Shown here piece after piece: positions 34,149 through 53,983 of a stretch of 64,000 nt of DNA. The first letter of the stretch is position 1. Each line of letters begins with the position of its first letter. The position numbers were made by a program, and so were the translations under genes. Where the stretch lies: assembly GCA_963666315.2 (NCBI GenBank), contig CAXXHG010000043.1, forward strand, positions 352,001 to 416,000, read 5' to 3'. This stretch comes from Candidatus Binatia bacterium (GTDB lineage Bacteria; Desulfobacterota; Binatia; Bin18). The notes beneath the pieces are model-generated. The model was not told where the DNA came from and made no database searches. It saw only the letters and a list, made by a program, of their open reading frames with translations.

Positions 34149-34233
34149 GATAAGTTGGTCTGAATTATTTTGTTTCAACTTATAAGTTCCATTTATTTTT
34201 CCATCGTTGCAGCGAGGAGCGCAGAATCCCTGC

Positions 34234-34261: not shown

Positions 34262-34278
34262 GCGAAGACACTGTTCAG

Positions 34279-34321
34279 CGTGCCCTCGTAGCTCAGGAGG
34301 ATAGAGCACCGGATTCCTAAT
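34279..34321 (+). repeat. att site: 5' half of tRNA-Arg(CCT), direct repeat of 45735-45777
   Basis: 43-bp identity CGTGCCCTCGTAGCTCAGGAGGATAGAGCACCGGATTCCTAAT, ending just past the anticodon loop. Confidence 0.92.
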
Positions 34322-35330: not shown

Positions 35331-35479
35331 CGCTTTGATGAGTTATGGCGAAACGATATGGCCGCCTGAAGTCGTCAATCGGCGCGGCCACATTGTCTGC
35401 GTGTTTGTTTGGACGGCGCTTGGCATCGATGATGTTCCTCATACGGCTCAAACGTGGAGCGGTCCTGATCTTCCATGGG

Positions 35480-35761
35480 GCGACGCTGATTTACAATGAT
35501 GATATTGTGGAAACTGATCAGGATGTGCCGGTAACGATCCCAGAGGCAGACTTGCTTGCCAATGGTACGGATGTGCACGGAGATAGCCTGAATATTACTG
35601 CAATCGACAAAGCAGTGAAGGGGAGAATCCGTATCAGCGGAAACGGGATCATAAACTTCATGACTGGTCGGCGTTTCTCCGGTGACGGATCCTTTCAATA
35701 CACGATTGATGCTGGCAACGGTGGAACCGATACGGCCACCGTGACGATGTCGAGTCCTTAA
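35480..35761 (+). pseudogene. Cadherin-like/Ig-like (Big_9 type) domain fragment
   Basis: DD.VET.QD.PVTI...LLAN..D..GD.L, F.G..SF.YTI...NGGTDTATVT. Confidence 0.6.
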
Positions 35762-35779
35762 AAAGAAGGAGGAGGTATT

Positions 35780-37039: not shown

Positions 37040-37360
37040 ATACTAGCTAGCCCATCGGCAACCTGTATGAGGGTCATATCGACGAACCTTAGACCAAAAT
37101 TCGATATGGTCATTTGACCCTCCCTGGATATTTGCTCATCACGAAGACGTTTTTTCTTAATGATCGGGTGCACATGAGGACTACGAAAGGTTTTTCCTCT
37201 TGCCGATGTGTACCCATTGTCATTCAACCATTCTGCTATCTGTTTAAATGTCCAACCCTTGCCTCGAAAGTCTGATACCGGATCGTAAAGAAATTGTTGG
37301 TAATTGGAGTAGAGCGCGACCCATAGAGTTGATGTGCGCAGATTTACGTCGAAGGTTAAA
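37040..37360 (-). pseudogene. Recombinase-domain (serine recombinase associated) fragment
   Basis: GWTFKQIAEWLNDNGYTSARGKTF...V..I motif; no N-terminus. Confidence 0.55.
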
Positions 37361-37480
37361 ATTGAGCCGAGTCATAATAGTCGATTCACCGCTGTCCTGG
37401 ATCGCTTTCTTCCGCACTGGCAGCAGCGGCGGGACGAGCTGAATCGTTTGCCAGTCCGGCATGAGGAGTGGGGATATTAA
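37361..37480 (+). pseudogene. M48/YgjP-like metallopeptidase C-terminal fragment
   Basis: IEPSHNSRFTAVLDRFLPHWQQRRDELNRLPVRHEEWGY*, matching the region after HExxH in this family. Confidence 0.6.
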
Positions 37481-37677
37481 GTGCGAGCGGCTGGCCATGG
37501 CGTGACGGATAGCGGGAGCGAGTGGCGTTATTGAAACGCGGGGACGGTTCTGACGAAAAGACAGGGTCTCATAACGTCGTGATAGGCCCACACCATAATT
37601 ATTCGAGCTGGGGCGGTTTTGTTGCCGGCGATGAGAACGATGATTCAGAACCTGCAGGAAATTCTTGAGTAGAAGTC

Positions 37678-38403
37678 TTAGTCCCGCCCTGCCTCAATAA
37701 TCTTCTCAGCTAATCCAATCGGATTGGTAAAAATCGCCTCATGGCTGCCCGGCATTTGGACCAGCCGATACAGACCCAAGCGATTTGACATACGTGGATG
37801 CCAGCCCCACTCGCCCGGTGGCAAAGCGATATCTTCGGTACAGTTCAGAAAACTCTTGGGGATGTCTGATGCGTAGAACTTCTTCATGTCGAGCTTGTCG
37901 CGATAGGGCTGGTACGGCTCAGGCGAGAGACGTTCGTAGGCGGATTTGGCGAGTGCTAAATCCGCATCATTAATAAAAGCGTCGCGCCAAATCGGGAACG
38001 GCAATACGATCGTATAATCGTTCGACTCTTTTACTAGCTCATCAAAAAGCTCGTGATAGTGAGATGGAACTTCATCCATCAGACTATTGCCATCCTCACA
38101 CACAAACGCATTCCAAAAGACGAGACGCTTGATCCGTTCCGGGATGGCAGGCGCTACCTGAGAGATAAGGGTGCCACCAAAGCTGTGGCCGACAAGGACA
38201 ATATCTCTCAAGTCTTCTTTAACAATGAAATCAATAATCGACTGCGTACACTGGGCGTGATTGACATTTTTGTCCACGCCTTTGCCATGCCCGGCGATGG
38301 TCGGACCAAAAGCGGTATGGCCTTTCCCTTCCAAATGCGCGATCACCGGCTCCCAGGCCGACCCATCGTGCCATGCACCGTGGACCAAGACAAATAGAGA
38401 CAT
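37678..38403 (-). CDS. Alpha/beta hydrolase (salicylate esterase-like)
   Basis: LVHGAWH, GHSFGG, EDIAL, GSHE. Confidence 0.9.
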   Translation of the reverse strand: MSLFVLVHGAWHDGSAWEPVIAHLEGKGHTAFGPTIAGHGKGVDKNVNHAQCTQSIIDFIVKEDLRDIVLVGHSFGGTLISQVAPAIPERIKRLVFWNAFVCEDGNSLMDEVPSHYHELFDELVKESNDYTIVLPFPIWRDAFINDADLALAKSAYERLSPEPYQPYRDKLDMKKFYASDIPKSFLNCTEDIALPPGEWGWHPRMSNRLGLYRLVQMPGSHEAIFTNPIGLAEKIIEAGRD

Positions 38404-38586
38404 AGCTATCCTCCTGGGTGCTTTCGTATGACATGCCGATGGGAACTGTCAATGCATCGCCCCCGGCTTCTCCCACCCCAATCAGGATGAGAACAGTGTA
38501 CTGCAGTTCGGTACGTCAGTATCCGGAGGATCACTCAATGTTGCCTCCGGCATAACTTCTTCGGTTAGCGGCGGCAGTGGGAGAAA

Positions 38587-38834
38587 ATGCAGGAAGAAGC
38601 CTCGGCTGTTGACTTCAGCCCTGGTTCCCTCGACCTGTTGGCTGGCTCGGTCGGCAACGACGATGACCGGGCGATACTCGACGAAGAACAATTGCAGGCT
38701 GAAGAGGACGCGCAGTTCGAGGCTGCTTCTGCTGCCACGATGGGACCGATTGAGGATTTGTCGGCCAAGCAATTGTTTGAGCGCGAGCAGCAACTGCTCC
38801 AGGAAATGACAGATATTGCGGAGCCGCCCGCGAG
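38587..38834 (+). pseudogene. Fragment resembling DISARM SNF2 helicase DrmD
   Basis: LDLL.G....DDDRA.L.EEQL.AEEDAQ.EAASAAT...LFEREQQLL.EMT.IAE; recognised from memory only. Confidence 0.4.
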
Positions 38835-38836
38835 GC

Positions 38837-39571
38837 CTAATCCAGTCCCTGCAGATTCTCAAGAATATCCGCCGGCTCTAGGCGAATGGCATAATTCGCG
38901 TCCACATGAGCAAGCTTGATAGTCCGATCTGTACCAATGACGTAGGTCCCGGGTATCGGGAGCTGCCAGACGGCGCCGCCATTATGATCGGGTAGCTTAA
39001 TTCCTAATGCCGCGTACGCTGTTTGAAGCTCATCAACGAGCCGAAATGCGAGTCCGAATTGCTTGGCCACAGTGTTGCCCACGTCGCTGAGGACCTCAAA
39101 CTTGAGGCCAGTCCTCTCTGCAATGGTGAGCGAGTTATCTGGTGTTTGCGGAGAAATGGCAACCAACGAGGCACCCTTAGCTAGTATCTCCGGCAGATGT
39201 TTTTGGTAAGCCTGCAACTGCGGGTTACAGTACGGTCACCACGCGCCTCTATAAAAGGCGACCACGACGAGCCCTGTGACCAAGAGGTCGGAAAGCGAAA
39301 CGGACTCTTCGCGGACATTGGGTAAGCTGAAATCGGGCGTCGTGTCTCCCACCTTCAAGGCTGTTTTTGCGATGCCGGACTTTACCTGGTCTTCTGTTGT
39401 TCGCACTACAACACCAAGAACTTCTTTGGGTAACTTGGGCAGCATTTCTTTCTGAAATGCTGCAATTTGTTGTTTGAGCTCGCTATCGGGCCCAGTCCGC
39501 GGGACCTTTTTGGTGCAGAACTCAATCATATCCGTAACAATCCCCGCGCCGGGTTCCATTTGACCGCTCAT
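38837..39571 (-). CDS. Peroxiredoxin-like (AhpC/TSA) selenoprotein, UxxC, read through UGA at 39236-39238
   Basis: ORFs 39236..39571 and 38837..39217 are in frame: FYRGAW-UGA-PYCNPQLQAYQ; the family motif is FYRGxWCPYC; hairpin follows the UGA; selA/selC are in the window. Confidence 0.72.
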
Positions 39572-39599
39572 AGAAATACACCTTTCCGAAAAGAATGAC

Positions 39600-40596
39600 T
39601 GCAGCTCCGCGAGCTTTGCCGTTTGCGTAGGCGGGTCAGGTTGCTTGCTCCCCGGGCTCTTTTTTACCGATGGGGCTGTCGGTTTCGGAGGAGTTGTGCG
39701 CGATACGGAAGGGACAAAGGCGGACGATGGGCGCGGTTCAGGAACATCACCACTCTCTCCTGGTAGGTTAGTTGGCTGAGGCGGCGTTTCATCTGTTACA
39801 TCAGAGGACTTTCCTTTGATTCGGCTACGGTTGACCGCTTGGAAGGAGGCGGTGGGTCAGGCAGGAGTGGGACTGGCTCCTTTGTCTCCCGCTTCGCTGT
39901 CTCTTTATGCTGGACGGGGAGTTGTCCTTCTCCTTCCTTCGGATTGTCTAATTCAGAAGAAGCGTCTGAGGGCGGATCGGGTGGTATAGCGGACAAATCC
40001 TTCGGAATGCCAACAAAGGAAGAATCCTGCTTTGTAAGTCGTTGCCTCTGCACTCCTCCCTCATGAACTGGTGTCCATCCAACGTAGCCTACTACGGCAA
40101 GGGCGAGGAGTCCGGCAGCGCACATGCGTGCATAACGCCAACGGCTCTGAGGTGCTTCAAAGAGCTGTGTCGGAAGTACGATTTTATTGCTCTGGGGCTT
40201 TTTGGTTACATCCGCTTCGAGAAATTGCTCCGATGGAAGGGATGCTGCTGTTAACTTTGTCTCTTCGTCCTGTACGGTTTCTGGGGTAGGGGGTTCTTGC
40301 GAAGGCTCTCGCGATGCTTCCTGATCTTGCTGCGCTCTTTCAATAGGGTCTGTCGTCCCGACAGTGTCGAGTCCTCCCTCGGTGCTGAAGTCGTCATCAA
40401 GCTCTTCGAGCACATTCTTTGCCCTTCCCATTTCTACAGAGAGATCAAAGAGCTTCTGACGGATTTCGACGTGGTGAGAATCAAGAGCGAGTACTGCCCG
40501 GTACTCAGCCTCAGCCTCTTCCAGTCTACCCTCCTGCCTGAGACGCTCACCGTTCTGAATGTGATTAATTAGGGGATCACTCTCCTGGTTTGTCAT
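39600..40596 (-). pseudogene. TPR-containing, single-TM, Pro-rich protein, frameshifted/truncated
   Basis: N-terminal TPR-like helix pair (G.LEEAEAEYRAVLALD), TM, Pro-rich linker that continues in another frame past the stop at 39796. Confidence 0.5.
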
Positions 40597-40864
40597 GGTG
40601 TTTTTGCTGAGTATTCCACGAAGTTATCTAAGGAAATGGCTCTTCATTCGCCCCGCGACATAATCCCGTCTCCCCGTATTCCATTTCCTATTTTTGCGTG
40701 TATCGGTATCGCAGAAACTGGGGCCGTGCAAGAGAAACGCCCTGCCAGACTTCCATAATCGATTGTAGGTAAGCCCCAGGCTAGATATCGACCCGGTTCC
40801 GGGTCCATTTCATCTGACCCCAGCACTGTTTTGCACCCTTCACATCACCGACCTGTCGAACAAA

Positions 40865-41270
40865 GTGGCTTTGATGAACGGGACCGAAGTCGATGTGGTG
40901 CCCCTACCCTCCCTATACCGGCGGCTTGGTCCGGACGATGTGCGCCCTTTGTATCCGTTTGCACGTGATTTTGTTCTTCAGCTCCGTCTTGAAAAGGAGC
41001 TGCACGAGGACTGTCGCGTAGAGACCACGTTCCGATGGATACCGTTGACAGGCGGCAGCTTTAATGTCAGTCCGATGACCGCAAGAGCGCGTTACTCGAT
41101 CCTGCGCATACGCGGAACGCTGTTCGATGTTTTTACGATTCTTCTGCTGTTGACTGGAAGCTAGGATTAATCGACAAGGTCTTGTTCTGCCCTAATCGCG
41201 ACACACTATTTGTGAGACGAGGCAAGCAGAAGTACTGTACCCCTCGCTGCACACAGCACGCGGCAGGCCC
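40865..41270 (+). pseudogene. CGNR-like zinc finger protein remnant
   Basis: CPNRDTLFVRRGKQKYCTPRC after stops/frameshift. Confidence 0.4.
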
Positions 41271-41525
41271 ACGCGATTTCCAGGCCGCAGCCTGGGGGGG
41301 AATGGAGAGGACAACCCGATGTCCCGTAACCCCCAGAGAATCAAGGCTTTTCGCCTATTTTCGGCGGGTTACGAAACTCATAGTGTGGGTATTGGTAAAC
41401 AGCAATTGTTCACCGTCGAACGCGCAGAAGTCAGTGAGCGTTCCACCGTTGTCGATGTTAATGAGTCTTCCCACGGATTGTCTTCCTATTGAGAGACGAA
41501 ATGTACGCCTTGGCTACAAGGCGCG

Positions 41526-42335
41526 TTATGCGCTTTCAATGTCGTCGTAATCTCCATGGCGCCCTTTGCCACTGCTGAACCGCGCGGCGCCAGCGAGGCC
41601 TTCGGTCTCGACGATGTCGATGCTATTTCCCCATTCGGTACGCAGTGCATCGGCGACCGGCAAGCCATGCTGCCGATAGACCGAGCGACGGTCTGCTCGC
41701 ACGCATTCCTGCGGAAAGCGTGCAATCTCGTGGGCGAGTGCCTCGGCCGACTCTCGCGAGCTACCGTCAGCGACCACCTGTTCGCAGGCGCCGATGCGCA
41801 GACACTCGTCAGATGGGACTTTCCGTCCGGTCATGATGATTTCGAGCGCACGTCCCTGGCCGACCAGTCGGGGCAGGCGCACGGTACCGCCGTCGAGCAG
41901 GGGAACCCCCCAGCGTCGACAGTAGACACCAAAATAGGCGCTCTGTTCCATCACGCGGATATCGCACCACAACGCCAGCTCGAAGCCGCCCGCGACGGCC
42001 GGGCCCGCCACCGCAGCAATCACCGGTTTCGACAAGTCAAGCCGTGTCGGTCCTATGGCACCGCGTGGCGGCTTACTTCCATCCGCCGGAAAGTCGAGTT
42101 CACGGAGCGGTTTTGCGCTCCCTTTGAGCGCGCTCGCATACTTCAGATCCCATCCGGCGCAGAACGCACCGCCTTCCCCCCAGAGAACGGCCACGCTGGA
42201 ATCCGGATCAGCATCGAAACGCTCGAATGCCTCCACCAATGCATCCGCACTGTCAGGGTCCATTGCGTTGCGGGCTTCGAAGCGGCTGTGAATTACTGTC
42301 GTCACTGCACCATTTCTTTCAATGCGTACACTCAT
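41526..42335 (-). CDS. Enoyl-CoA hydratase/crotonase family protein
   Basis: RNAMD, FCAGWDL, AVAGGFELALWCD; start MSVRIER. Confidence 0.92.
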   Translation of the reverse strand: MSVRIERNGAVTTVIHSRFEARNAMDPDSADALVEAFERFDADPDSSVAVLWGEGGAFCAGWDLKYASALKGSAKPLRELDFPADGSKPPRGAIGPTRLDLSKPVIAAVAGPAVAGGFELALWCDIRVMEQSAYFGVYCRRWGVPLLDGGTVRLPRLVGQGRALEIIMTGRKVPSDECLRIGACEQVVADGSSRESAEALAHEIARFPQECVRADRRSVYRQHGLPVADALRTEWGNSIDIVETEGLAGAARFSSGKGRHGDYDDIESA

Positions 42336-42466
42336 CTCGATCTCCTTAATCGTTCGGGCTGGCCAGAAGAGGCACGGGGGGTGCTTGTCGAATTGGGTAT
42401 CCAATACTCCAAGGAGGCTTTTGTTCAGGCCATTGGGAACAATGACTCTACCAAGCGTGTCTTATG

Positions 42467-43558
42467 CTACACAAGATATTTCGCTACTGCGTGCTCATCC
42501 CATGCGAGGCCTGTCCCCGGTGTGGAGGTGGGCAGAATCTTGCCAGCTTCAATAACAGTCGGTTCTTGGAGAAAGGGATCCGCCCAGTCCATATACTCCA
42601 GCCAATGCCGCGTTGGCGTTACTGCGAGCAAGTGAGCGCTGATTTCTGGGTAGAGATGTGACGAGATAGGAATGCCGCTGGGCCCAGCCAAGGCAATCGC
42701 TCGCAGCCAGCCTGAGACGCCGCCGATTTTATTTGCATCCGGCATGAGGAAGTCCCCAGCCCCGGCAGCGATTGCCTTGGCCATGTCATGCGGTCCCCAA
42801 AAGTTCTCTCCAAGCTGAATGGGCGTTTGAGTGGATTGGCGAATGAGGGCATAGCCTGCGTAATCGTCCGCGCGGGTGGGCTCTTCGATCCAACACAGCC
42901 CCTCACCGTCAAGTGCTTGGGCCCTTTGCATGGCCTCAGGAACGGACAAAGACTGATTGTAGTCCGACATCAAGGCGATGTTATCGGGAATCGCGTTGCG
43001 GACTGCGCGCACCACCTCAACATCTGTTTTTACATCCGGATAGCCCAGTCTGACTTTGATGGCTTTGAAGCCTGGCTCAACAAGCGCTCTCGCTTCATCG
43101 CCGGCTCGTTCGGCACCGATAATTCCCAAACCCGTACTGTTGTAAGCCGGAATCGGTTGGGCTTTTCCTCCAAGCAGCTGAACCAAAGGAAGTCCAGCTG
43201 CTTTTGCGCATGCATCCCAGGCCGCGCTATCGATACCGGCGGCTGCCATGGCAGTAAAACCCTGTGGGCCGAGCAAACGAAAGGCTCGTTGTAATTTTTC
43301 TTCTAGGGCGAGCGGGGCAACTACTTCACCGTTGATGAGGTCGCCCAGATTGTGCAGCAGCTTGACGAGAGGTTCAAGGACAAACGCGGCATAGCAGAAG
43401 ATATAGCCACAGCCGGTAATGCCTTCCTCCGTCTCAAGATCGACCAGTACAAGCGGGACCCGAGCGACTGATCCACCCCCCGTTTGTATTGGTCTCGTCA
43501 TGGGCAGGCTGAGTGCACGGGCACGTAAAGAACGGACTGTGAGGACATGCCTGGGCAT
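42467..43558 (-). CDS. Mandelate racemase-like enolase superfamily protein
   Basis: AIKVRLG, DYNQ, WIEEP, LGEN, PD..KIGGV, SSHL, HWLE. Confidence 0.88.
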   Translation of the reverse strand: MPRHVLTVRSLRARALSLPMTRPIQTGGGSVARVPLVLVDLETEEGITGCGYIFCYAAFVLEPLVKLLHNLGDLINGEVVAPLALEEKLQRAFRLLGPQGFTAMAAAGIDSAAWDACAKAAGLPLVQLLGGKAQPIPAYNSTGLGIIGAERAGDEARALVEPGFKAIKVRLGYPDVKTDVEVVRAVRNAIPDNIALMSDYNQSLSVPEAMQRAQALDGEGLCWIEEPTRADDYAGYALIRQSTQTPIQLGENFWGPHDMAKAIAAGAGDFLMPDANKIGGVSGWLRAIALAGPSGIPISSHLYPEISAHLLAVTPTRHWLEYMDWADPFLQEPTVIEAGKILPTSTPGTGLAWDEHAVAKYLV

Positions 43559-43760
43559 GGATTCCCCTCTCTCCCAGTGAGCAGGTGAATGCAGAGTATA
43601 GCCAATGCGCTGAGAGGGTCAAGCAGGAAGGCGAGAAGTTGCTTACTATCCAGGAAGTTGTTCCCTCGGTTATTGGGAGGGTAGCAGACAGTCCTCCGGA
43701 CCGTACCAAGGTTACTGCTGTGTCCAGTTTATTTTCTTGCATCATATGACCTCCCCGTTC

Positions 43761-43839
43761 TGACGTGTCATAGGACACATACTACTCTCAACAGTTATAC
43801 CCTTTACTAGTTGACAGTTCAAGAGTGTCACGGTACGCT
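43761..43839. promoter_or_regulatory. Overlapping divergent sigma70 promoters with TGACA/TGTCA operator-like repeats
   Basis: Plus: TTGACA(43811)-17-TACGCT. Minus: TTGAAC-17-TATAAC. Palindromes TGACA-N9-TGTCA (43812-43830) and GTGTC-ATAG-GACAC (43765-43778). Confidence 0.6.
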
Positions 43840-43847
43840 TCTCATGT

Positions 43848-44609
43848 GTGGAGGTCATCATAGTGAGACGCAGAGTATCACGGCCACTTGGAGGAATACT
43901 TGGCGCTGCGATCCGCGAAGCACGAGAGACAAGACGGTTGCGTCAAGATGACCTTGCAGCGGTTGCACGAGAGGTTGGACTTCCTTGGACACGGGTGACT
44001 GTGGCAGCCATCGAAATTGGTCGCCGCAGGCTCACTCTCGATGAATTTCTGCTACTACCTGCTGTTCTGAATTTCACCGAGCTGGCCGAGCTTTTTCCAA
44101 TGGACTCGTGGGTTGGCCTTACGAAGGAAACAAGCGTACACAGCACAGAGCTGAAATACATTCTCTCGGGGAAAGCCGGGAAAGGTCATCCCGGAAATTA
44201 TGACACGCCAGCGCAGCGTAAGCTCCAAAATGAATTCCCCAGACAACAGATAAGGGACATCGTTCAAGGGACAGTCATCCCAAAGGTTGTGGAAGTGATA
44301 CGACGCGTGTGGCCAGAGGTAGAAAGTGGCGGCAATGAGTTCCTTATTCAATGTGAGATGGAAGCCAAGAGGGATGCCGAGCAGAAGGCCGCACGAAGAT
44401 TGCACGTGTCGCCCTTTGAGGTCGCCCTGGCGGCGCAGAAGTTGTGGGGGCGTTCGTTGACGGCGGAACGAGACCGGCAGGTCGCGTTTCGAGAGACCGA
44501 CGCGGCGGCAACAGGCAGACGCCGTGCCATCAGGGGCCATGTGACGAGGTTACTTGTTGAAGAGATCAGGCCGCTGGTAACAGGTGCATGTGAGGCTGAC
44601 GAGGGGTAA
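43848..44609 (+). CDS. XRE-family HTH regulator of the integrative element
   Basis: IREARETRRLRQDDLA......WTRVTVAAIEIGRRRLTLDE; start may be GTG 43863. Confidence 0.8.
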   Translation: MEVIIVRRRVSRPLGGILGAAIREARETRRLRQDDLAAVAREVGLPWTRVTVAAIEIGRRRLTLDEFLLLPAVLNFTELAELFPMDSWVGLTKETSVHSTELKYILSGKAGKGHPGNYDTPAQRKLQNEFPRQQIRDIVQGTVIPKVVEVIRRVWPEVESGGNEFLIQCEMEAKRDAEQKAARRLHVSPFEVALAAQKLWGRSLTAERDRQVAFRETDAAATGRRRAIRGHVTRLLVEEIRPLVTGACEADEG

Positions 44610-44640
44610 ACAGGGAATCACAAGGCGCAGAGGACTAAAT

Positions 44641-45725
44641 ATGCCTAAATACAGATATGGCGCAGTCAGAGTGTATCGGCGTGGCAAGACTTGGTGGATC
44701 GATTATTACCATGATGGCAATCGTGTCCGCGAATCAGCGGACACGTGTGACAAAAGTGAGGCACGGCGTTTGTTGCAAGAGCGGATGGGGCAAATAGCCG
44801 AGGGACGCTATGGGGGTCCACGAGCGGATCGGGTAACTCTGGTGGACTTGGCAAGAGGTCTTCTCGACGATTACAAGACGAATGGAAGAAAGACTCTGAG
44901 TGACGTGAAAATCCGTATCAATCTGAATTTGTTTCCATTTTTTGGAAAGCGACGGCGAGCCCAATCACTTACATCCACCGATGTGCGTTCCTACATTTCA
45001 GAAAGACAGGTAACCGGGAGTTAGCCGCCCTGAAACGAATGTATAATCTCGCCCTTCAAGAGGCGATAATTAACAGGAAACCCTATATCCCTAGTCTTGA
45101 CGAAAACACGGCGAGAAAAGGCTTTTTCGAGAGGCATGAATTTCTGTCGATGTTGTCGAAGCTGCCCGAGTATCTACGACCATCCTTCATGTTCGCGTAT
45201 CAGTTCGGCTGGAGGATAAGAAGTGAGGTATTCCCACTACGCTGGGAGCAAATTGATCTGCATACCTGCACGGTCCGTTTGGAGGTAGGGATCACGAAAA
45301 GCAAAGATGGAAGACTTATATACCTGACAAACGAACTTCGTGCCGTGTTTAGTGCCTATTGGGAACAACATCTCAGGTCTTCCCCGGGGTGCCCCTGGGT
45401 TTTTCACCGTAGTGGTAAACGTATATTCACGTGCTACAAGGCATGGCACAGGGCTTGTCGGGAAGCCGGGCTGATTGATAGGATACCACACGATTTTAGG
45501 CGGACCGCTGTGAGGAATATGGTAAGGAGCGGAATCCCTGAGAGAGTGGCTATTCAAGTGGCCGGACACAAAACGCGGTCTGTGTCTGATCGGTATCATA
45601 TCGTATCGGATATCGACCTCCAGGAAGCAGCAACACGAATGGAATCGTGTAATTCACCAGTCTTGGACACAAATTTGGTCACAGGAACCCCGTTCGCGTT
45701 AGGGGAAACCAACGTAAGTCACTAA
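44641..45725 (+). pseudogene. Tyrosine recombinase/integrase, frameshifted by a short deletion
   Basis: Arm-binding N-terminus (WWIDYY..G.R.RES); break at ERQV/NRELAALKRM near 45012-45024; catalytic R (GWR), K, HDFRR, GHKT, Y (DRY). Confidence 0.88.
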
Positions 45726-45737
45726 TTTCATTAACGT

Positions 45738-45811
45738 GCCCTCGTAGCTCAGGAGGATAGAGCACCGGATTCCTAATCCGGGGGTCGTGCGTTCGAATCG
45801 CGCCGGGGGCA
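45738..45811 (+). tRNA. tRNA-Arg(CCT)
   Basis: Cloverleaf: acceptor GCCCTCG/CGGGGGC, anticodon arm CCGGA-TTCCTAA-TCCGG, T-arm GTGCG-TTCGAAT-CGCGC; CCA not encoded. Confidence 0.95.
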
Positions 45812-45922
45812 TGTCCTTTCTTTTCAATATCTTATGCAATTTCATAGGTTTTCCAGCTATCTAGAGCAACCCAGTTTGTTGTCCAGTTTGTCTCACCAGT
45901 CCGGTTTATCCAGCTATAACTA

Positions 45923-45956
45923 TGAAAAAGGGGCCTGGAAATCCAGGCCCTCTCTT
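45923..45956 (-). terminator. Intrinsic terminator after glmS
   Basis: GGGCCTGGA/TCCAGGCCC stem with a T-tract on the minus strand. Confidence 0.7.
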
Positions 45957-45998
45957 AATCCTGCTTTTGCTTGGATAAGTTGAATGTGAGCTACGCTG

Positions 45999-47828
45999 CT
46001 ATTCTACCGTTACACTTTTTGCCAGATTACGCGGCTGATCAACGTCGGTCCCACGGTAAATGGCAACATGATAGGCTAAGAGCTGGAGCGGGATGCTGAG
46101 CAGAATCGGCATGAGCAGGTGGTTGGTCTTCGGGACTTGGATGATCTCCCAGGCAATCTCTTCAAGCTCAGGAGAAGGAGCGTCGGTCAGTGCAATAACA
46201 CGTCCCCCCCGTGCCTCGACCTCTTTCATATTGCTCAGTGTTTTTTCGTACACGGGATCTTTTGGTATAAGTACGACAACGGGCATTTGCTCATCTATGA
46301 GCGCGATCGGACCGTGCTTCATCTCGCCGGCGGGGTAGCCCTCGGCGTGGATGTAGGAAATTTCCTTGAGTTTGAGTGCTCCCTCGAGCGCAATGGGATA
46401 ATTCACCCCCCGTCCGAGATACAAGAAATCGCTGGCATGGCCATATTTTTTGGCAATTTTTCCAATGGCTTTGGCCTTGGTCAGGGCCTCTTGGACAAGC
46501 GATGGTAGATTGACGATATCTTCGATGAGTTTGCGGCTTTGGTCTTTATTCAAGACACCCCGACGTTGGCCAAGATGTACGGCTAAGAGATAGAGCGCTG
46601 TCAGCTGGGTCGTAAACGCCTTGGTTGAGGCAACGCTGATCTCCGGTCCCGCGTGTGTATACATGACCATGTCAGCCTTGCGCGTAATGGACGAATCGAC
46701 CACGTTGCAGACGGTGAGGGTAGTGGCCCCTTTGGCTATGCCGGTTTCGAGTGCAGCCAGGGTATCCGCAGTCTCACCCGACTGGGACACGGCAAGCAGC
46801 AAGGTGTCTCTGTCGAGCGGGGTATGGCGATAGCGAAACTCGCTACCATAGTCCACTTCTGTCGGTAGGGCTGCCAGCTCTTCAAATAGGAATTTTCCGA
46901 CCAAACACGAATGCCAGGCTGTTCCACATGCGACTAGGGTCGCCCGTTTTACCGCATCGAGTAAGGGCAGATGCTGGTCGAGTTCGCCCAGAGTGATTTC
47001 GCCCGACTCCTCCAAGATACGGCCCCGCATGGTGTCGATAATAGCTTGCGGTTGTTCGTAGATTTCCTTGAGCAGAAAATGCTTATAGCCGCTTTTTTGA
47101 GCGGTAATGGGATCCCAGGTGATTTGCCGCGGGGCGCGCTCGATCGGCTGCCCAGAGAAATCTGAGATCGACACGTTTGTGCAACTTACCTCAGCCATCT
47201 CACCGTCGTCGAGAAATACGACCTGGCGCGTATAGTCGAGAAGCGCGGGTACATCGGAAGCAATAAAATTCTCACCTTTGCCTAAACCGATGACAATGGG
47301 TGTGGCATTTTTTGCTGTGAGAATGGTGCCAGGATTTTTCTCACTCAGGACGACGATGGCAAACGAGCCAGACAGATGTCGGAGAGCCGTCCGGGTGGCT
47401 TCTGAGAATGACATGCCTTCTTGGAGGTATTGATCAATCAGGTGCGAGATAACTTCGGTATCGGTCTCTGAGCTAAACGTCCGCCCTTTTTCCATCAAGG
47501 CATGCCGCAGGTCGAGATAGTTCTCGATAATGCCGTTATGGATCACGACAACGTCTCCGGCCCGATGCGGGTGGGCGTTCTCCTCAGACGGAGGGCCATG
47601 GGTTGCCCAGCGAGTATGGCCTATCCCAATGCAGCCAGGCAGAGGTTCTTCCTGCAACAGCTGATTGAGGTTGTTCAGCTTGCCCACCGCCCGGCGGATA
47701 GAAATGTGTCCATTTGTGAAAGCGGCGATGCCGGCGGAGTCATAGCCTCGATACTCGAGCCGCTTCAGCCCCTGAAAGAGTAGTGGGGCTGCTTCACGCT
47801 GACCAACATAACCCATGATGCCGCACAT
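45999..47828 (-). CDS. glmS: Glutamine--fructose-6-phosphate aminotransferase
   Basis: MCGI, LEYRGYDSAG, GHTRWATHG, SQSGETADT, PRNLAKSVTVE. Confidence 0.98.
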   Translation of the reverse strand: MCGIMGYVGQREAAPLLFQGLKRLEYRGYDSAGIAAFTNGHISIRRAVGKLNNLNQLLQEEPLPGCIGIGHTRWATHGPPSEENAHPHRAGDVVVIHNGIIENYLDLRHALMEKGRTFSSETDTEVISHLIDQYLQEGMSFSEATRTALRHLSGSFAIVVLSEKNPGTILTAKNATPIVIGLGKGENFIASDVPALLDYTRQVVFLDDGEMAEVSCTNVSISDFSGQPIERAPRQITWDPITAQKSGYKHFLLKEIYEQPQAIIDTMRGRILEESGEITLGELDQHLPLLDAVKRATLVACGTAWHSCLVGKFLFEELAALPTEVDYGSEFRYRHTPLDRDTLLLAVSQSGETADTLAALETGIAKGATTLTVCNVVDSSITRKADMVMYTHAGPEISVASTKAFTTQLTALYLLAVHLGQRRGVLNKDQSRKLIEDIVNLPSLVQEALTKAKAIGKIAKKYGHASDFLYLGRGVNYPIALEGALKLKEISYIHAEGYPAGEMKHGPIALIDEQMPVVVLIPKDPVYEKTLSNMKEVEARGGRVIALTDAPSPELEEIAWEIIQVPKTNHLLMPILLSIPLQLLAYHVAIYRGTDVDQPRNLAKSVTVE

Positions 47829-47885
47829 GATTGAGTCCTCTTCTGCGAAAGAATCGGGTGTGTGTTCTTACTGAGGGCAGCTGAA

Positions 47886-49316
47886 TTAGCTGTCCTGTTG
47901 TGATTCTTCTTTGGCGCGTTTGGCCGCCGTCCAGCCTGCACGTGTTTCTTCCTGACGCCGATTAAAGACAAGCGCCCCGGCTGGAACGTCGTGGCGGACC
48001 GTCGTGGCCGTGGCGATATAGACATCGTCGTTGATGGTAATCGGAGCGATCAAAGTCGTGTCCGAGCCGATCTGAACCCGATCCCCGATCTTGGTCTTAT
48101 GCTTACGGAAGCCGTCATAGTTGCAGGTGATGGTTCCCGCCCCTATATTGGTATCCTGGCCGACTTCGGTATCGCCGATATAGGCCAAGTGCTTCGCTTT
48201 TGTATGCTCGCCTATGGTAGATTTCTTGACTTCGACGAAATTCCCGATCTCCGCCCGTGGAGCCAGGAAGGCACTAGCGCGCATACGTGAAAACGGACCG
48301 GCCGAGGAATAATTGCTCAGCTCGCTGTCACGTAGGTCAACCGAGAAATAGATCTGGACATTATCCCCGATTGTACAATTTTCAATATACGCACTGCCGT
48401 CAATGCGGCAGTGTGATCCTATCGTCGTCTTGCCCTTGATATGGGTATTTGGACCAATGATCGTATCTTGGCCTATCGTGGCTTCGTCACTCAGGTATAC
48501 GGTCTGCGGGTCTTCAAATGTGACGCCAGCGTCCATCCACTGACGGCGGAGTTGTTCTTGGCGTGTTGTTTCCATACGAGCGAGCTCCTGTCGAGAGTTG
48601 ACGCCTTCGACTTCGTAAAAGTCTGGAGTGAGGACGACCCGAGTCGGGAGTCCGGCCTGGACGGCCGTCGCCACGATATCGGTCAAATAGTATTCACCTT
48701 GGGTGTTGGTCGGCTGCAGGCGGTCCAGGGCGGAAAAAAGAAAATCGGCGTGGACACAATAAATACCGGTATTGATTTCTTGGACGACAAGTTCTTGTTC
48801 CGATGCGTCACGGGCTTCAACAATCCGGTCCAGCTGTCCGTCTGCTTGCCGAATAACGCGCCCGTATTGAGCCGGATCTTCGAGCCGTGCGGTCAAGACT
48901 GACAGCGTGCTCTGCTGAGCCCGATGCTGTGCGACGAAGCGAGCCAGCGTTTGCGTCCTCAGGAGCGGGACGTCGCCGTAGACGATAAGAATATCACCCC
49001 GGAAGCTGTGAAACTGTTCCTGGGCCGCGCGCACGGCGTCTCCCGTGCCGCGCTGCTCGTGTTGGAGAGCGAAAAGAATATCGTCTCCGCCACAGACCTG
49101 CTGAACGACGTCGGCCTGATAACCGACCACCACCACAAGACGGCTCGCGTGGAGACGCTGGCTGGCCTGAATGACATGCGTGAGAAGCGGTTTCCCGGCC
49201 AAGCGATGCAGGACTTTGGCCTGGTTTGATCGCATGCGTGTGCCTTTGCCCGCAGCAAGAATAATAACCCCGAGTTGTGCTCTTGGTGGTGAGTTCGTCA
49301 CGTCAGTAGCGCTCAT
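47886..49316 (-). CDS. glmU: Bifunctional UDP-GlcNAc pyrophosphorylase/GlcN-1-P acetyltransferase
   Basis: LAAGKGTRM, YGDVP, EYYLTD, GNFVEVK, NYDG; hexapeptide repeats. Confidence 0.97.
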   Translation of the reverse strand: MSATDVTNSPPRAQLGVIILAAGKGTRMRSNQAKVLHRLAGKPLLTHVIQASQRLHASRLVVVVGYQADVVQQVCGGDDILFALQHEQRGTGDAVRAAQEQFHSFRGDILIVYGDVPLLRTQTLARFVAQHRAQQSTLSVLTARLEDPAQYGRVIRQADGQLDRIVEARDASEQELVVQEINTGIYCVHADFLFSALDRLQPTNTQGEYYLTDIVATAVQAGLPTRVVLTPDFYEVEGVNSRQELARMETTRQEQLRRQWMDAGVTFEDPQTVYLSDEATIGQDTIIGPNTHIKGKTTIGSHCRIDGSAYIENCTIGDNVQIYFSVDLRDSELSNYSSAGPFSRMRASAFLAPRAEIGNFVEVKKSTIGEHTKAKHLAYIGDTEVGQDTNIGAGTITCNYDGFRKHKTKIGDRVQIGSDTTLIAPITINDDVYIATATTVRHDVPAGALVFNRRQEETRAGWTAAKRAKEESQQDS

Positions 49317-49369
49317 CCCGAATGCATCCCTTATCTAGTGTACCGTCTAAAACGGCGAAATCGCAAAAA

Positions 49370-50476
49370 TTAATTATTGTTAGCCGCATGGAGCCGATCT
49401 GGGAGGTTTTCAAACCAGGGTAAGACCAGCGTTTCATTGATAGAGTAGGTATAGGCATGGCCCCAGTCCGGCAGCTCCGTATAGATGATGTTTGCAAACT
49501 CTTGTCCTTCTAAAAAGTCCCGTGCCATGCGGGCGGAAGATACCGGAAAAATAAAATCCTTGGCGCCGTGTACGATAAAAATCGGAAGTGCAGTTGCCCG
49601 TTTATAATCGAGTCGGGGGAGGAGGACGCCGGCAATGGGCGCAATACCGGCAAAGAGTTTTGGACAACTGATGCCGAGCGCGTACGAAAACGTACCGCCG
49701 TCAGAAAGCCCGCTGACCAAAATTCGGCTGGTGTTGACCGCATATTCGTCCATGACTTCTTCGAGCATGGCCAGGATAGAGCGGATATCCAGGCCGGGTT
49801 GCTGAATAGACCAGGTTTGGCCCAGCGACTTAGGCGAGAGGAGAATGAGTCCCTTGCTCTTGGCTATCCTCAGCCAGGTCAGCATATAATCGTCCCCTCG
49901 TCCATGACCACCGTGTAAGGTGACCACCAGCGGCCAGTGTTGGTCAGGGTCATAGTTCTCGGGAACATACAGCGAATATTCCGCATGTTTCTTGGTTTGG
50001 GGCCGATGCATGACGCCGGTCTGCACGCTGCTTCCTTCGACCGGCGTTTCTAGTTCCGCTAGACGAGGTAGATCCTCGGCAAGGAGCCAATACGGCTGAA
50101 TGGGTGCTAGCTCGGACCGCAGGTCATACAACAGATATTTGCCTAACGAAAACACACGCCGGCTCTGCATATAGGCAACAATAAAATTATGTGGAGAGCC
50201 GGTACGAAAGGATGTGTAGGCGTCTTCGAGATGTTCAAGGGCTTCGAGCCATTTTTTGTGAAACGCGTTTCGGTTCGGTGGGATCTCCAGTTTCTCAGTC
50301 TCGGAATTGATGGCGGAAAACAGATCTCCTACTTTCCCGACCAATTCTTCCTGATGCTCGTTGATTTTCCCAAGATGAATCTGTTCTTGGAGCGCTTCGA
50401 ACGTACGTAAGAACGACAGAATCTGCCCCGCATGCTGGGTAATAGTCTCTTGGTAATGGGTCTCAAGCGTCGCCAT
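49370..50476 (-). CDS. Phospholipase/carboxylesterase with helical N-terminal extension
   Basis: LHGGHG, GLSDGG, HGAKD, WGH; start MATLETH. Confidence 0.8.
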   Translation of the reverse strand: MATLETHYQETITQHAGQILSFLRTFEALQEQIHLGKINEHQEELVGKVGDLFSAINSETEKLEIPPNRNAFHKKWLEALEHLEDAYTSFRTGSPHNFIVAYMQSRRVFSLGKYLLYDLRSELAPIQPYWLLAEDLPRLAELETPVEGSSVQTGVMHRPQTKKHAEYSLYVPENYDPDQHWPLVVTLHGGHGRGDDYMLTWLRIAKSKGLILLSPKSLGQTWSIQQPGLDIRSILAMLEEVMDEYAVNTSRILVSGLSDGGTFSYALGISCPKLFAGIAPIAGVLLPRLDYKRATALPIFIVHGAKDFIFPVSSARMARDFLEGQEFANIIYTELPDWGHAYTYSINETLVLPWFENLPDRLHAANNN

Positions 50477-50564
50477 AGTCGGTCTCTTTCGATGCAGAGC
50501 GAAGCTAGCAGCTTGGCTTTTGCAGTTGCAAGGGGGAAGCCCGTATGCCAAGGTAAAGACGGGT

Positions 50565-51956
50565 ATGAAAACACCAGGAGCTGATCCCAAAGCCCTTCTT
50601 CGCACGCTCCCGTCCGTCGAAAAAATTCTGAGCGCTGCGGCCTTTCAGCCCATTCTGGCGCGTTACAATAGGACCTATACTACCGATGTCATACGCAACG
50701 TGCTGGCGACTGCGCGTCACGACATTCTGGCTGGAACAATTATCGACCAGGTGAATGAGAGAAACGTCGTCGAACGGGTGCATACAGTGCTCCGTCGCGA
50801 CGACCAGTCCCCGCTGCGTTCGGTCATCAATGCAACCGGGACGGTGCTGCATACGAATCTCGGCCGCGCGCTGCTGGCTAAGGATGCGCTGGATGAAATG
50901 GTCCGAGTCGGCTCAACACCGGTGACGCTGGAATACGACATAGCTAAGACCGGACGCGGCGACCGGGATGATGTCATTGAGGCCGACGTGCTTGCCCTGA
51001 CGGGCGCAGAAGCGGCGACTGTTGTGAACAATAATGCGGCGGCAGTCCTGCTTGTGCTCAATACGCTGGCGGAAGGCAAAGAGGGAATTGTGTCGCGCGG
51101 GGAGCTGATTGAGATTGGCGGTTCGTTTCGCATCCCGGATGTCATGCGCAAGAGCGGAGTTGTTCTGCGTGAAGTGGGAACGACTAATCGGACCCATCTC
51201 AAAGATTATGCTGGTGCGATTTCTGCTGAGACCGGCGTGTTGCTGAAAGTTCACACCAGCAACTACCGTATCATTGGTTTTACTGCAGAAGTCGGGTTGG
51301 AAGAACTGGTTGTCTTAGGCAGGGAACACAACATCCCAGTGATGGAAGACCTTGGTGCAGGCGCGCTCATTGATCTGTCGCAATATGGTCTCCCAAAAGA
51401 ACCCATAGTAGCTGAGCGGATTGCGAAAGGTGCGGACGTTGTCACCTTTAGTGGCGATAAGCTGCTCGGCGGGCCACAGGCCGGACTCATTGTTGGTTGC
51501 AAAGAATGGATCGATAAGATCAAGAAGAATCCACTCAAACGTGCCTTACGGCTTGGCAAACTGACCCTGGCCGCGCTGAGTGCAACCCTGCGGCTGTACC
51601 GTCGTTCGCCCGATCTGCTCCAGGCCTTGCCGACCTTGCGTTGGCTGACCCGGCCGATAGAAGACATGGAAGCGATTGCTGCGCAAGCCCTACCGTTGCT
51701 TCAGAAAACGCTTGGCGACGAATTCTCGATAGCGGCTGACGACGCTATGGCACAGATCGGCAGCGGTGCTCTGCCGGAAGAAGAACTGCCGAGTAAAGTT
51801 ATCGCCATTCGTCATCCACAACTGTCGGCTGAAAAAATAGCGACCCGTTTTCGAGACGCTGATCCACCCATCCTCGGCCGCATCCATGACGGGACGTTTT
51901 TGCTCGACCTGCGTGGGATTTTTGATGCAACTCAGCTCGTCCCACGTTCTTCCTGA
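50565..51956 (+). CDS. selA: L-seryl-tRNA(Sec) selenium transferase
   Basis: INATGTVLHTNLGRA, VSRGELIEIGGSFRIP, EVGTTNRT, FSGDKLLGGPQAG. Confidence 0.97.
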   Translation: MKTPGADPKALLRTLPSVEKILSAAAFQPILARYNRTYTTDVIRNVLATARHDILAGTIIDQVNERNVVERVHTVLRRDDQSPLRSVINATGTVLHTNLGRALLAKDALDEMVRVGSTPVTLEYDIAKTGRGDRDDVIEADVLALTGAEAATVVNNNAAAVLLVLNTLAEGKEGIVSRGELIEIGGSFRIPDVMRKSGVVLREVGTTNRTHLKDYAGAISAETGVLLKVHTSNYRIIGFTAEVGLEELVVLGREHNIPVMEDLGAGALIDLSQYGLPKEPIVAERIAKGADVVTFSGDKLLGGPQAGLIVGCKEWIDKIKKNPLKRALRLGKLTLAALSATLRLYRRSPDLLQALPTLRWLTRPIEDMEAIAAQALPLLQKTLGDEFSIAADDAMAQIGSGALPEEELPSKVIAIRHPQLSAEKIATRFRDADPPILGRIHDGTFLLDLRGIFDATQLVPRSS

Positions 51957-51981
51957 CGCTGCAAGCTGAAGCTGGAAGACT

Positions 51982-52077
51982 TGGCGGAGAAGAGATGGAG
52001 TCGAACCATCCGCGCAACGTTACGCCACGCAACTCGGTTTTGAAGACCGGTACAGCCACCGGGCCATATCCTTCTCC
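51982..52077 (-). tRNA. selC: tRNA-Sec(TCA)
   Basis: 8-bp acceptor stem GGAGAAGG/TCTTCTCC, anticodon loop CTTCAAA, long variable arm, T-arm GATGG-TTCGACT-CCATC, ends GCCA; convergent with selA. Confidence 0.93.
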
Positions 52078-52112
52078 GCATAATGAAATCAAGCATTTAG
52101 CATGTGGGCGAA

Positions 52113-53156
52113 TTAGCGTCCAGATCCGTTTGCCAACAATTTGCCAACAGATTGGCCCACGGATGTAGGACGAGGACCGTTCACGACGTTTTTGAGCGCT
52201 TCAAGGGAGGGTTTATTGTACCTGGCGAAGACCTTATCAGTGCGGTGGCCGGTTATCGCCTTGATATAGTCCCTATCCCACCCCTCTCCGACCTTTCTGG
52301 TGACAAAGGACCGGCGCACGTCATGGAAATGGACGTCTTCGAGACCTGCTCTTGCGACCGCGTTATTGAATGACGTCTGGATACTTTTGAACGGTACTCC
52401 TCTGAGGGACAAAAATACATGTTGATAGATTTCGGTCACTTTCCTTCTTTCACGGCGTAGGTCCAGGAAGATTTCTCGCAGGATATCGCTTATGGGAACC
52501 AAGCGTTTGCGGCTCGTTTTCGTGTCATCGCTCAGGAGTGTGATAATGTCATTCCTAAGATCGACCCGAGTCCAGGTCAGCCTAAGAATTTCACCCTTCC
52601 GCATCCCAGTTTCCCACGCACACAACAAGATTGGTTTCAGATGCTCTGCTGCTTGTTCGTAGAGACCAGCGTACTCTTCTTCTGTCAAGACTCGATCTCG
52701 CTCGTTATCCTCTCGAAACAATTCGACCGCTGGGAGTTTCTCTAAGATCCCCTCCTTCCAAGCCATACGCAAGATGTGCCGAAGTAATGCAAGCTTGCGG
52801 TTGCAAGTCGCTGGGCTTTGCAACCGCTCTGGATTCCTGCGGCATGGTGTCTTTCGGAGTTTTAGACCGAATTCCTTGATCCTTGCGTAGGTAATGTTCG
52901 CTAAGGGTAAAGGACCAAATTCCACATTGAGGAACTGCAACAATAATTCGTCGTCCCTGATTGTCTTTTTTCCAGCGGCCAGTTCCAAATATCTGCATCC
53001 CCAGCTATGGAACGTCATCCACTCGGTTCTCCCCCTGTCGAAGTCTACTCTGCGCTCATTCTCGCCTAGGAGGAGCTTTTTCTTGCTTCTCGCTCCTCGA
53101 AGATCTGTGCCCGCGGGAATCTTCCGATTCACCCCTTTCCAATCCTTGAACCGCAC
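52113..53156 (-). CDS. Tyrosine recombinase/integrase (N-terminus eroded)
   Basis: TCNRKLALLR, GMRKGEI, TK, FHDVRRS, TGH, ARY; frame continues upstream as WTTRYYVRFKDWKG. Confidence 0.85.
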   Translation of the reverse strand: MRFKDWKGVNRKIPAGTDLRGARSKKKLLLGENERRVDFDRGRTEWMTFHSWGCRYLELAAGKKTIRDDELLLQFLNVEFGPLPLANITYARIKEFGLKLRKTPCRRNPERLQSPATCNRKLALLRHILRMAWKEGILEKLPAVELFREDNERDRVLTEEEYAGLYEQAAEHLKPILLCAWETGMRKGEILRLTWTRVDLRNDIITLLSDDTKTSRKRLVPISDILREIFLDLRRERRKVTEIYQHVFLSLRGVPFKSIQTSFNNAVARAGLEDVHFHDVRRSFVTRKVGEGWDRDYIKAITGHRTDKVFARYNKPSLEALKNVVNGPRPTSVGQSVGKLLANGSGR

Positions 53157-53218
53157 GTAGTAGCGGGTCGTCCATATGGCGCTGTCGGAGCAGTTGTTGA
53201 TTTGCGGAGATTGGCTCG

Positions 53219-53452
53219 GTGATTCGACGGCAGGCCATCTTCTTGATGGGATTCCTACTCACCGATCTCGAAGGCGGCGGCATCTCGCTTGAAAGAATAC
53301 TCTCCAACTGTAAGAGGCTCGCACGACTACCCGACGATTTTGAAACGATGGAGTGGTTTACTCTTGAAATACGCGGGTACAGTACGAGGGATTTTCCAAG
53401 ATACACAAAAAAAACAAGAGAAATGCTGGACAGCTTCAATCACCAACCTTGA
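53219..53452 (+). pseudogene. AbiTii-like N-terminal domain fragment
   Basis: LL.DLE.....LERIL..CKRLARL.DD.E..EW..LEI.GY pattern, recognised from memory. Confidence 0.4.
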
Positions 53453-53630
53453 GGCAACTATCGAGGGGCACTTGATCTCACTAAAGAATTTGAAACCGCC
53501 CGACCAGTGCCTATCGCCGATAGCGGTTCTGCGACTGAGATTCGCGTGTGTACCTTGTGAAAGTGTGTCGTTCAAACAGTGAATGCCATACGCAGGGTAT
53601 CAGCCTTAACAATGTCGAGAGCAACTTTGA

Positions 53631-53777
53631 CTGCCTGACGCGCGCGCGGAGACTTTTGGCCTTACCCACATAGATGACGGTTCCGTCTTTATCCTTGAAT
53701 TTATACACCCCGGGACTTGTTGGTAGGGTTCCGAGCTTGGCTTCAAGCTCGGCACTGTGCAAAAAGGTATTATCCAC
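53631..53777 (-). pseudogene. uvrC: Excinuclease ABC subunit C, 5' fragment only
   Basis: [32 protein letters not shown], then unrelated sequence; GAGGA RBS before GTG 53777. Confidence 0.85.
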
Positions 53778-53983
53778 CCGAGTCCTCAAAATAATAAAGG
53801 CGACCACTCAGGCCGCCCTTATCGTTAGCTAGCTAGCCACTAAGCAAGATAGCTGTAGTCTATATCTGTCAATACGCCAAGAGCCATGTTTGGTCTCGTT
53901 GACCGCCCAGGGCAAACCCGCTAGATGAAGAGCTGCTATACGACTGAGTAGTGTGTCAGTTTGTGTAAGGAGAAACATTCAGT

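Follow-up and report, generated by a model that had tools for sequence, protein, structure and literature searches.

Why should two divergent integrase genes of one genome each run straight into the 5' end of a tRNA gene, and why should much the same 19-nt sequence stand at both junctions? The question is raised by a 64,000-nt stretch of contig CAXXHG010000043.1 of Candidatus Binatia bacterium (assembly GCA_963666315.2; positions 352,001 to 416,000, hereafter the window), in which one tyrosine integrase gene points at the 5' end of tRNA-Arg(CCT) and a second one at that of tRNA-Sec, each on the strand of its tRNA. Both junctions are probably the integrase-proximal ends of decayed islands, whose lambda-type tyrosine integrases would recombine at the anticodon loop in the minority polarity; the islands would lie upstream of tRNA genes because they were inserted in this rarer polarity, replacing the front half of the gene. 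The evidence is most direct for tRNA-Arg(CCT), the 5' half of which, down to the anticodon loop, is supplied by the element, the 3' half being native.

The island at tRNA-Arg(CCT)

A BLAST search of the tRNA region against the window revealed, at 34279-34321, a perfect direct repeat (43/43 nt) of 45735-45777, a stretch that spans position -3 of tRNA-Arg(CCT) to its anticodon loop. The DNA upstream of this copy, presumably the native upstream region, differs from that of the intact gene, and island DNA follows the copy. Paired arm-type repeats of the form TTGGNCAC-N4-TTGGNCAC start at 34449/34461 and at 45663/45675, and these are the only such pairs in the whole 4.99-Mb genome. From the displaced 5' half and the TTGGNCAC pairs at both island ends it therefore follows that the element supplies the 5' half of the tRNA together with its upstream DNA, which supports part of the interpretation given in an earlier note on this sequence. 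The island is 11.4 kb long, with the Arg junction as its integrase-proximal end, and has the following parts:

34279-34321, plus strand: displaced 5' half of tRNA-Arg(CCT) at the far island junction (B-O-P' type), a 43-nt perfect repeat
34322-44640, no strand assigned: island cargo, from Pfam scans
34449-34468, plus strand: far-arm pair of arm-type repeats, TTGGGCAC-N4-TTGGGCAC, about 130-145 nt past the crossover
43848-44609, plus strand: HTH (helix-turn-helix) regulator gene
44641-45725, plus strand: tyrosine integrase of the island, with a frameshift near 45020
45663-45682, plus strand: integrase-side pair of arm-type repeats, TTGGACAC-N4-TTGGTCAC (starts 45663/45675), in the 3' coding end of the integrase
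45715-45733, plus strand: shared motif TAAGTCACTAATTTCATTA, with the integrase stop codon (45723-45725) inside it
45738-45811, plus strand: tRNA-Arg(CCT), by ARAGORN and Rfam

The locus thus has the configuration by which Islander recognises an island, namely an intact tRNA gene (tDNA) and a displaced fragment in direct orientation with an integrase between them, and it has it in the reversed-polarity form, in which the fragment is the 5' end and lies upstream of the gene; the same arm-type repeats are found in both arms. The integrase is preserved in two frames, an N-terminal arm-binding part (44641-45024) and a catalytic part (45039-45725), which match model positions 1-128 (with one TAG inside) and 130-368, respectively. 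The cargo comprises fragments of a cadherin-like protein and of a di-haem oxidoreductase, an alpha/beta hydrolase, an AhpC/TSA protein, a TPR protein, an enoyl-CoA hydratase, an enolase-family enzyme of the MR/MLE type and the HTH regulator that precedes the integrase. Since this cargo is partly broken, the island is old and probably immobile. The AhpC/TSA peroxiredoxin (38837-39571, minus strand) lies in two open reading frames (ORFs; 39236-39571 and 38837-39217), apparently through a frameshift.

We found no clean empty site for the island in the sister genomes. There, 9-23 kb of DNA with unrelated genes separate the thiolase-like gene that flanks the island (32794-33996 in the window) from tRNA-Arg(CCT), no integrase being present, and the nearest relative (G009) has a 2.6-kb contig with the flank and the 5'-fragment region, on which ARAGORN detects no tRNA. 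Outside the window, at C43:328467-328512, there is an inverted 46-nt copy of positions 31-76 of tRNA-Arg(CCT), 69 kb from the gene.

The tRNA-Sec remnant and an integrase family of mixed polarity

Beyond tRNA-Arg(CCT) follow, on the minus strand, glmS, glmU and an alpha/beta hydrolase gene, and then selA, whose product is 92% identical to SelA of a Candidatus Binatia bacterium, the nearest named relative, and the second junction:

50520-51956, plus strand: selA
51986-52077, minus strand: tRNA-Sec(TCA), adjoining selA, by ARAGORN and Rfam
52081-52099, minus strand: shared motif TAAATGCTTGATTTCATTA, non-coding
52113-53156, minus strand: Sec-side tyrosine integrase, without a start codon where its homologues of about 385 aa begin
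52130-52148, minus strand: arm-type pair GTTGGCAA-N3-GTTGGCAA (starts 52148/52137) in the 3' coding end of the integrase
53219-53452, plus strand: AbiTii-like piece, debris beyond the integrase
53511-53807, minus strand: GIY-YIG-like piece, debris beyond the integrase

As the start codon is missing at the position where the homologues start, the Sec-side integrase is probably inactive. Six close homologues (63-68% identity) show the same same-strand junction, with tRNA-Sec (L001, L114) or tRNA-Ser(TGA) (L109, L111, L113, L120) as the target; two further homologue contigs (L108, L110) end inside the start of a gene of the tRNA-Sec/tRNA-Ser(TGA) type, and another (L112) has no tRNA. In the sister genomes, an integrase stands beside tRNA-Sec in none of the eight loci, and the region upstream of tRNA-Sec is conserved in seven of them and differs from that of our genome. 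Nucleotide homology with these genomes ends at 52077-52080, which is the 5' end of tRNA-Sec; no distal end of the element came to light, the sister-genome loci that we fetched having no homology beyond 52080.

Some observations on relatives of this element may be added. The contigs L112 and L113, both from metagenomes, carry near-identical integrases and are alike downstream up to CGTGCTAAGT, past which L113 runs into tRNA-Ser(TGA) and L112 into unrelated DNA without a tRNA, so that the breakpoint lies within the motif. Three sister genomes (G007, G015 and G005; L104-L106) have a partial or full second copy of tRNA-Sec 1.4-9.3 kb upstream of the 5' end, with about 25 nt of upstream sequence in common and no integrase left, and these copies may be older 5'-polarity remnants. 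The sole other GTTGGCAA pair of the genome, at C22:78508, adjoins an integrase that faces the 3' end of tRNA-Arg(ACG), that is, one of 3' polarity, about 45% identical to the Sec-side integrase. The occurrence of this pair at both places means that one arm-site sequence is common to integrases of both polarities.

Both integrases of the window contain the domain PF00589 (85.8 bits on the Sec side, 61.3 bits on the Arg side, cut-off 27.1), and they share 27% identity over 199 aligned residues, in keeping with the divergence already remarked in the earlier note. An alignment headed by the Sec-side integrase shows no variation at R186, R281, H304 and Y313 and hardly any at K213 and H278; the catalytic region of the Arg-side protein aligns via HDFRR and GHKT..RY. 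Among 80 genome loci with relatives of the Sec-side integrase, a same-strand tRNA lies within 100 nt of the stop codon in 11 and an opposite-strand tRNA within 130 nt in 44, while in 25 a tRNA is absent or only distant, partly through contig ends; these proportions are not population frequencies, since 5'-polarity queries were used to seed the sample. Relatives of the Arg-side integrase, present in 51 of 151 genomes of the class in a six-frame search, likewise mix both polarities. On a FastTree tree of 120 sequences (rows shorter than 250 aa, L009 and the C22 region, each with a second integrase in its locus, and also L108, L110, L112 and L113 being left out), the 79 rows that could be labelled (56 of 3' and 23 of 5' polarity) require at least 12 changes of polarity, 10 of them forced by well-supported branches, the support values being local Shimodaira-Hasegawa-like (SH-like) ones only. 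Shuffled labels gave a mean of 20 changes and in none of 500 shuffles as few as observed. The Arg-side and the Sec-side integrase each fall into clades mixed with 3'-polarity members, and at tRNA-Thr(TGT) both polarities (L004, L022) meet within a single well-supported clade.

The arrangement recurs in the same genome. Of its 28 integrase-domain matches, seven run into a tRNA gene of their own strand at its 5' end (Arg-ACG, Arg-TCG, Arg-CCT, Sec, Ser-TGA, Leu-TAA and Leu-CAA) and four point at a tRNA 3' end, and six displaced 5' fragments (of Arg-CCT, Arg-ACG, Ser-TGA, Leu-CAA, Leu-CAG and Met) occur next to numerous ordinary 3' fragments. Two of the targets, Arg-ACG and Leu-TAA, are single-copy tRNAs in this genome, and an intact integrase at Leu-TAA lies on contig C24. 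The anatomy of the Arg-CCT island is seen again in the Arg-ACG island of contig C22, both ends of which carry a TTTCTACTC pair. The displaced 5' fragment of this C22 island (C22:89229-89272) is a chimera, with positions 1-27 as in tRNA-Arg(ACG) and the anticodon arm as in tRNA-Arg(TCG); it is not accounted for by a simple crossover in the anticodon loop and may be the trace of an integrated element that was adapted to the other Arg tRNA. At C5:80139-80553 an attP-like (phage-type attachment site) arrangement is seen, consisting of an integrase 3' remnant, the motif, the 5' half only of tRNA-Met and then GAGATAAG-type repeats; the intact tRNA-Met, on C15, has another upstream region and no integrase within 1.5 kb. 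A tandem array at tRNA-Leu(CAA) (C37:32643-41827) consists of an intact integrase leading into a 36-nt 5' fragment (33760) and a decayed second integrase leading into the intact tRNA (41742), with the same motif ahead of both.

The shared motif

TAAGTCACTAATTTCATTA (45715-45733, plus strand) ends 4 nt short of the mature 5' end of tRNA-Arg(CCT), and TAAATGCTTGATTTCATTA (52099-52081, minus strand) 3 nt short of that of tRNA-Sec; ARAGORN and Rfam thus bear out the placing of both 19-mers 3-4 nt before the tRNA in the earlier note. The order is the same at both junctions, with a pair of direct repeats within or beside the 3' end of the integrase gene, then the 19-mer, then the tRNA; the paired TTGG-containing repeats that had been described are real, the octamers lying 12 nt apart on the Arg side and 11 nt apart on the Sec side. 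The pattern TAANNNNYTRATTTCATTA (at most one mismatch) has two matches in the window, the two integrase-tRNA junctions, and two matches were obtained in 0 of 100 dinucleotide shuffles; a chance match was rejected as an explanation. Also rejected, on both sides, was the idea that the leading TAA of the 19-mer is the integrase stop codon: the Arg-side integrase stops at the second TAA of the motif (45723-45725) and the Sec-side one upstream of it (52115-52113).

The consensus binding site of integration host factor (IHF) is WATCAANNNNTTR. The reverse complement of the Sec-side motif, AATCAAGCATTTA, matches this consensus perfectly. Among 33 non-redundant 5' junctions the consensus is matched perfectly in 8 and with at most one mismatch in 13, always 20-23 nt ahead of the tRNA, compared with 0/42 and 1/42 in native tRNA upstream regions and 0.2% and 3.3% in shuffles; as the junction sequences are mutually related, these and the following counts overstate independence. 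Where the integrase faces the 3' end of a tRNA (57 junctions), 11 junctions have a perfect motif and 29 a motif with no more than one mismatch (2.5% in shuffles), always in the integrase-to-tRNA orientation and at 15-20 nt from the tRNA boundary, save that one of the 11 perfect matches (L031) lies at 41 nt. In our genome it is likewise found ahead of tRNA-Thr 3' fragments (C19, C32), of an opposite-strand tRNA-Ala fragment (C38) and at the 3'-polarity integrase of tRNA-Leu(TAA). The motif had been put forward as a signature of 5' capture, a claim that these 3' junctions do not support, 29 of 57 having it equally far from the tRNA and oriented alike; what we find is a generic IHF-like site with no bias in tRNA type, the very outcome that the earlier note had named as telling against its proposal. 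The shared attP design that it had suggested survives, with paired arm-type repeats and an IHF-consensus site beside the tRNA at both junctions.

The integrase stop codon lies inside the motif in one subfamily, the motif is non-coding in the Sec lineage, and its synonymous positions are fixed where codons overlap it; non-coding occurrence and fixed synonymous positions together mean that the constraint acts on DNA. We somewhat favour the view, from sequence comparison, that the motif is an accessory site of the IHF type in the arm of attP. The genome encodes an IHF-alpha-like (C32:165730-165996; 106.9 bits) and an IHF-beta-like protein (C12:17215-17487; 105.1 bits), each scoring best against its own type. 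A third HU/IHF-like gene (C43:79634-79903) lies about 1 kb from an integrase gene (C43:78117-78599). Apart from the junctions, TAAGTATTTGATTT occurs at C43:315680, about 36 kb before the start of the window, within a cluster of TTATCCACA-like and TTATCCATAGG repeats that we take to be DnaA-box-like; the cluster may be a replication origin with an IHF-type site.

In the explanation that we propose, attP would consist, in this order, of the integrase 3' end with two arm-type repeats, the IHF-consensus site, 3-4 nt and the tRNA from position 1 to the anticodon loop, with two further arm-type repeats in a second arm past the tRNA segment. On integration, element DNA would take the place of the front half of the tRNA gene and of all that lies upstream, and the native front half with its own upstream region would be displaced to the far end of the island. 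The integrase would be neither split nor altered by integration, because the crossover lies outside its gene. The 19-mer would act at the DNA level as a site in the attP arm that is bound by a protein, most probably the IHF-like one of the host, and would be kept throughout the integrase family regardless of the tRNA end that faces the integrase; the rebuilt tRNA would be transcribed from element DNA, either by read-through from the integrase gene or from a weak internal promoter.

Several results weigh against this explanation. A scan for a consensus sigma-70 promoter found none in the element DNA upstream of tRNA-Arg(CCT) or tRNA-Sec. The reverse complement of the Arg-side motif is two mismatches off the IHF consensus, both IHF-like proteins score below the curated cut-offs of 120 bits, and the relatedness of the junction sequences noted above bears on the enrichment as well. 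The junction 34321-45778, which would mark an empty site, was not seen in the contigs of four DNA runs over 33600-53550, although the contigs of this organism in those runs have a depth of 2-6, are broken at the tRNA repeat and have no bearing on mobility either way. On the Sec side, neither the window nor the genome holds a displaced tRNA-Sec fragment, nor the window a second GTTGGCAA arm pair. The tRNA-Sec element hence lacks the Islander configuration, and because fragment and second arm pair are absent its polarity is taken from the homologues and the sister genomes, which support its reading as a remnant of the same reversed-polarity kind as the Arg island.

Among the alternatives, it is possible, if unlikely in our view, that the motif is mainly an element-borne promoter and leader of the rebuilt tRNA; equally doubtful is the assignment that would go with it, in which TAAGTN, some 20 nt ahead of the tRNA, would be a -10 hexamer and TTGATTTCATTA the start region and AU-rich pre-tRNA leader. 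The junctions of the Sec/Ser lineage fit such a layout well, TGGACN or TAGACN being followed after exactly 17 nt by TAAGTG, TAAGCG or TAAATG in all six distinct cases while the spacer varies, and similar layouts stand ahead of tRNA-Sec in the sister genomes (TGGACT-17-TAAGCG, 7/8 loci) and of tRNA-Leu(CAG) in the genus (TTGACA-18-TAAGTA, 17/20 loci including that of this genome; two others have TATGAA there). Moreover, since single-copy tRNAs (Arg-ACG, Leu-TAA) are targeted, their promoter would have to come from the 5'-polarity element. However, the same motif, in the same orientation to the integrase, is found at the 3' end of opposite-strand tRNAs (29/57) and ahead of 3' fragments, where driving a tRNA is impossible; the hexamers are without the usual final T, the consensus scan finds no promoter, and no comparable -35 element is seen in the Arg-CCT-type junctions. 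To judge from these layouts, the motif may have a dual role at 5' junctions, its left half serving there as a -10-like element as well, but this cannot be its general role because the motif also stands at 3' junctions.

That the motif is conserved merely as the last residues and stop codon of the integrase is very improbable. The ORF does end at the TGA or TAA of the motif in the Arg-CCT-type subfamily and in many 3'-polarity relatives (for example ..LSH*, encoded by CTA AGT CAT TGA), but the Sec lineage has its stop upstream of a motif that is non-coding, on C22 the motif lies about 180 nt beyond the stop, and the third codon positions (xTA, AGT, xxT) are fixed though the protein would permit change. 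Still less credence can be given to the original proposal, by which the elements would form a distinct class, not described before, that specifically captures tRNAs reading rare or recoded codons and places them under the elements' own transcription unit. Both cases in the window decode such codons (AGG and UGA), the close Sec-type lineage targets tRNA-Sec or tRNA-Ser(TGA), and the tRNA does lie downstream of the integrase on the same strand. The supposed bias nevertheless disappears on wider sampling, as the arrangement extends to major tRNAs and is seen in this genome at Arg-ACG, Arg-TCG, Leu-TAA, Leu-CAA, Leu-CAG, Ser-TGA and a Met fragment, and among the homologues at Thr, Asp, Ser and Leu. 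The integrases moreover belong to clades of mixed polarity, with the at least 12 changes among 79 labelled sequences described above, and Table 1 of PMC4383910 already catalogues 5'-fragment islands.

It is tempting to go further and to suppose that in this lineage a single integrase family moves freely from 3' to 5' polarity and back at the anticodon stem-loop, a symmetric structure, that its 5' members seize the control regions of tRNAs, including the single-copy Arg-ACG and Leu-TAA, and that the host in turn depends on element DNA for tRNA expression, although we regard this joint reading as speculative and rather improbable. If it is true, such dependence would explain why remnants of integrase 3' end and arm persist after the island has decayed. 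The genus-wide region upstream of tRNA-Sec, TGGACT-17-TAAGCGCTGAGG, may itself be a relic of the arm of such an element, because it is like the TGGACN-17-TAAGTGCTTGATT of the mobile lineage. For annotation, the results mean that an integrase found upstream of a tRNA can be the sign of a real island whose ends can be mapped precisely, and that many such islands are possible in one metagenome-assembled genome (MAG). The family also includes close relatives that differ in polarity and agree in the layout of arm sites and IHF-like site, and it lends itself, as a natural system, to the questions of how polarity is determined and of how expression of a tRNA gene is maintained once its promoter has been exchanged.

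Comparison with known systems

The attP of phage lambda combines arm-type Int sites, IHF sites and a core. The elements described here resemble it in the pair of arm-type direct repeats that each arm holds some 60-145 bp away from the core, in the IHF-consensus site between arm sites and core, and in the N-terminal arm-binding domain of the integrase (weak PF12167 match). They differ in that the core is the anticodon stem-loop of a tRNA, that one arm lies in the 3' coding end of the integrase, and that the IHF site is a predicted one. The selC gene (tRNA-Sec) is an integration hot spot in enterobacteria, with elements described at its 3' side; tRNA-Sec serves as attachment site here too, the element lying at the 5' side. 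Overlap of att sites with the integrase coding region is mentioned in PMC4383910 as a known exception, the integrases of Mx8 and SSV extending across attP. The present integrases are similar in this overlap, but here it is confined to the last codons and to the arm sites, joined in one subfamily by the IHF-like site.

The closest counterparts are the islands with 5' fragments catalogued by Islander and TIGER. PMC4383910 defines islands by a tDNA and a displaced fragment, describes a configuration filter, and lists in its Table 1 3760 islands with a 3' and 159 with a 5' fragment (3919 in total); section 7 of PMC6563490 treats recombination with a tRNA's 5'-distal region as known and infrequent, and the element of Zhao and Williams (2002), by its title and its citation in that section, recombines with the 5'-distal part of a tRNA. 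With 159 of 3919 tabulated islands of this type, the system can no longer be called undescribed, as the earlier note had it. As far as the parts cited describe them, the 5'-fragment islands share with ours the tyrosine integrase, the intact tDNA and displaced direct-repeat fragment at the island ends, the crossover centred on the anticodon loop and the position of the 5' fragment upstream of the gene. The present islands are further members of this known, uncommon kind and no new kind of system; what sets this genome apart from the islands so described is its unusual richness in them (at least seven junctions and six displaced fragments), and their origin from an integrase family of mixed polarity.

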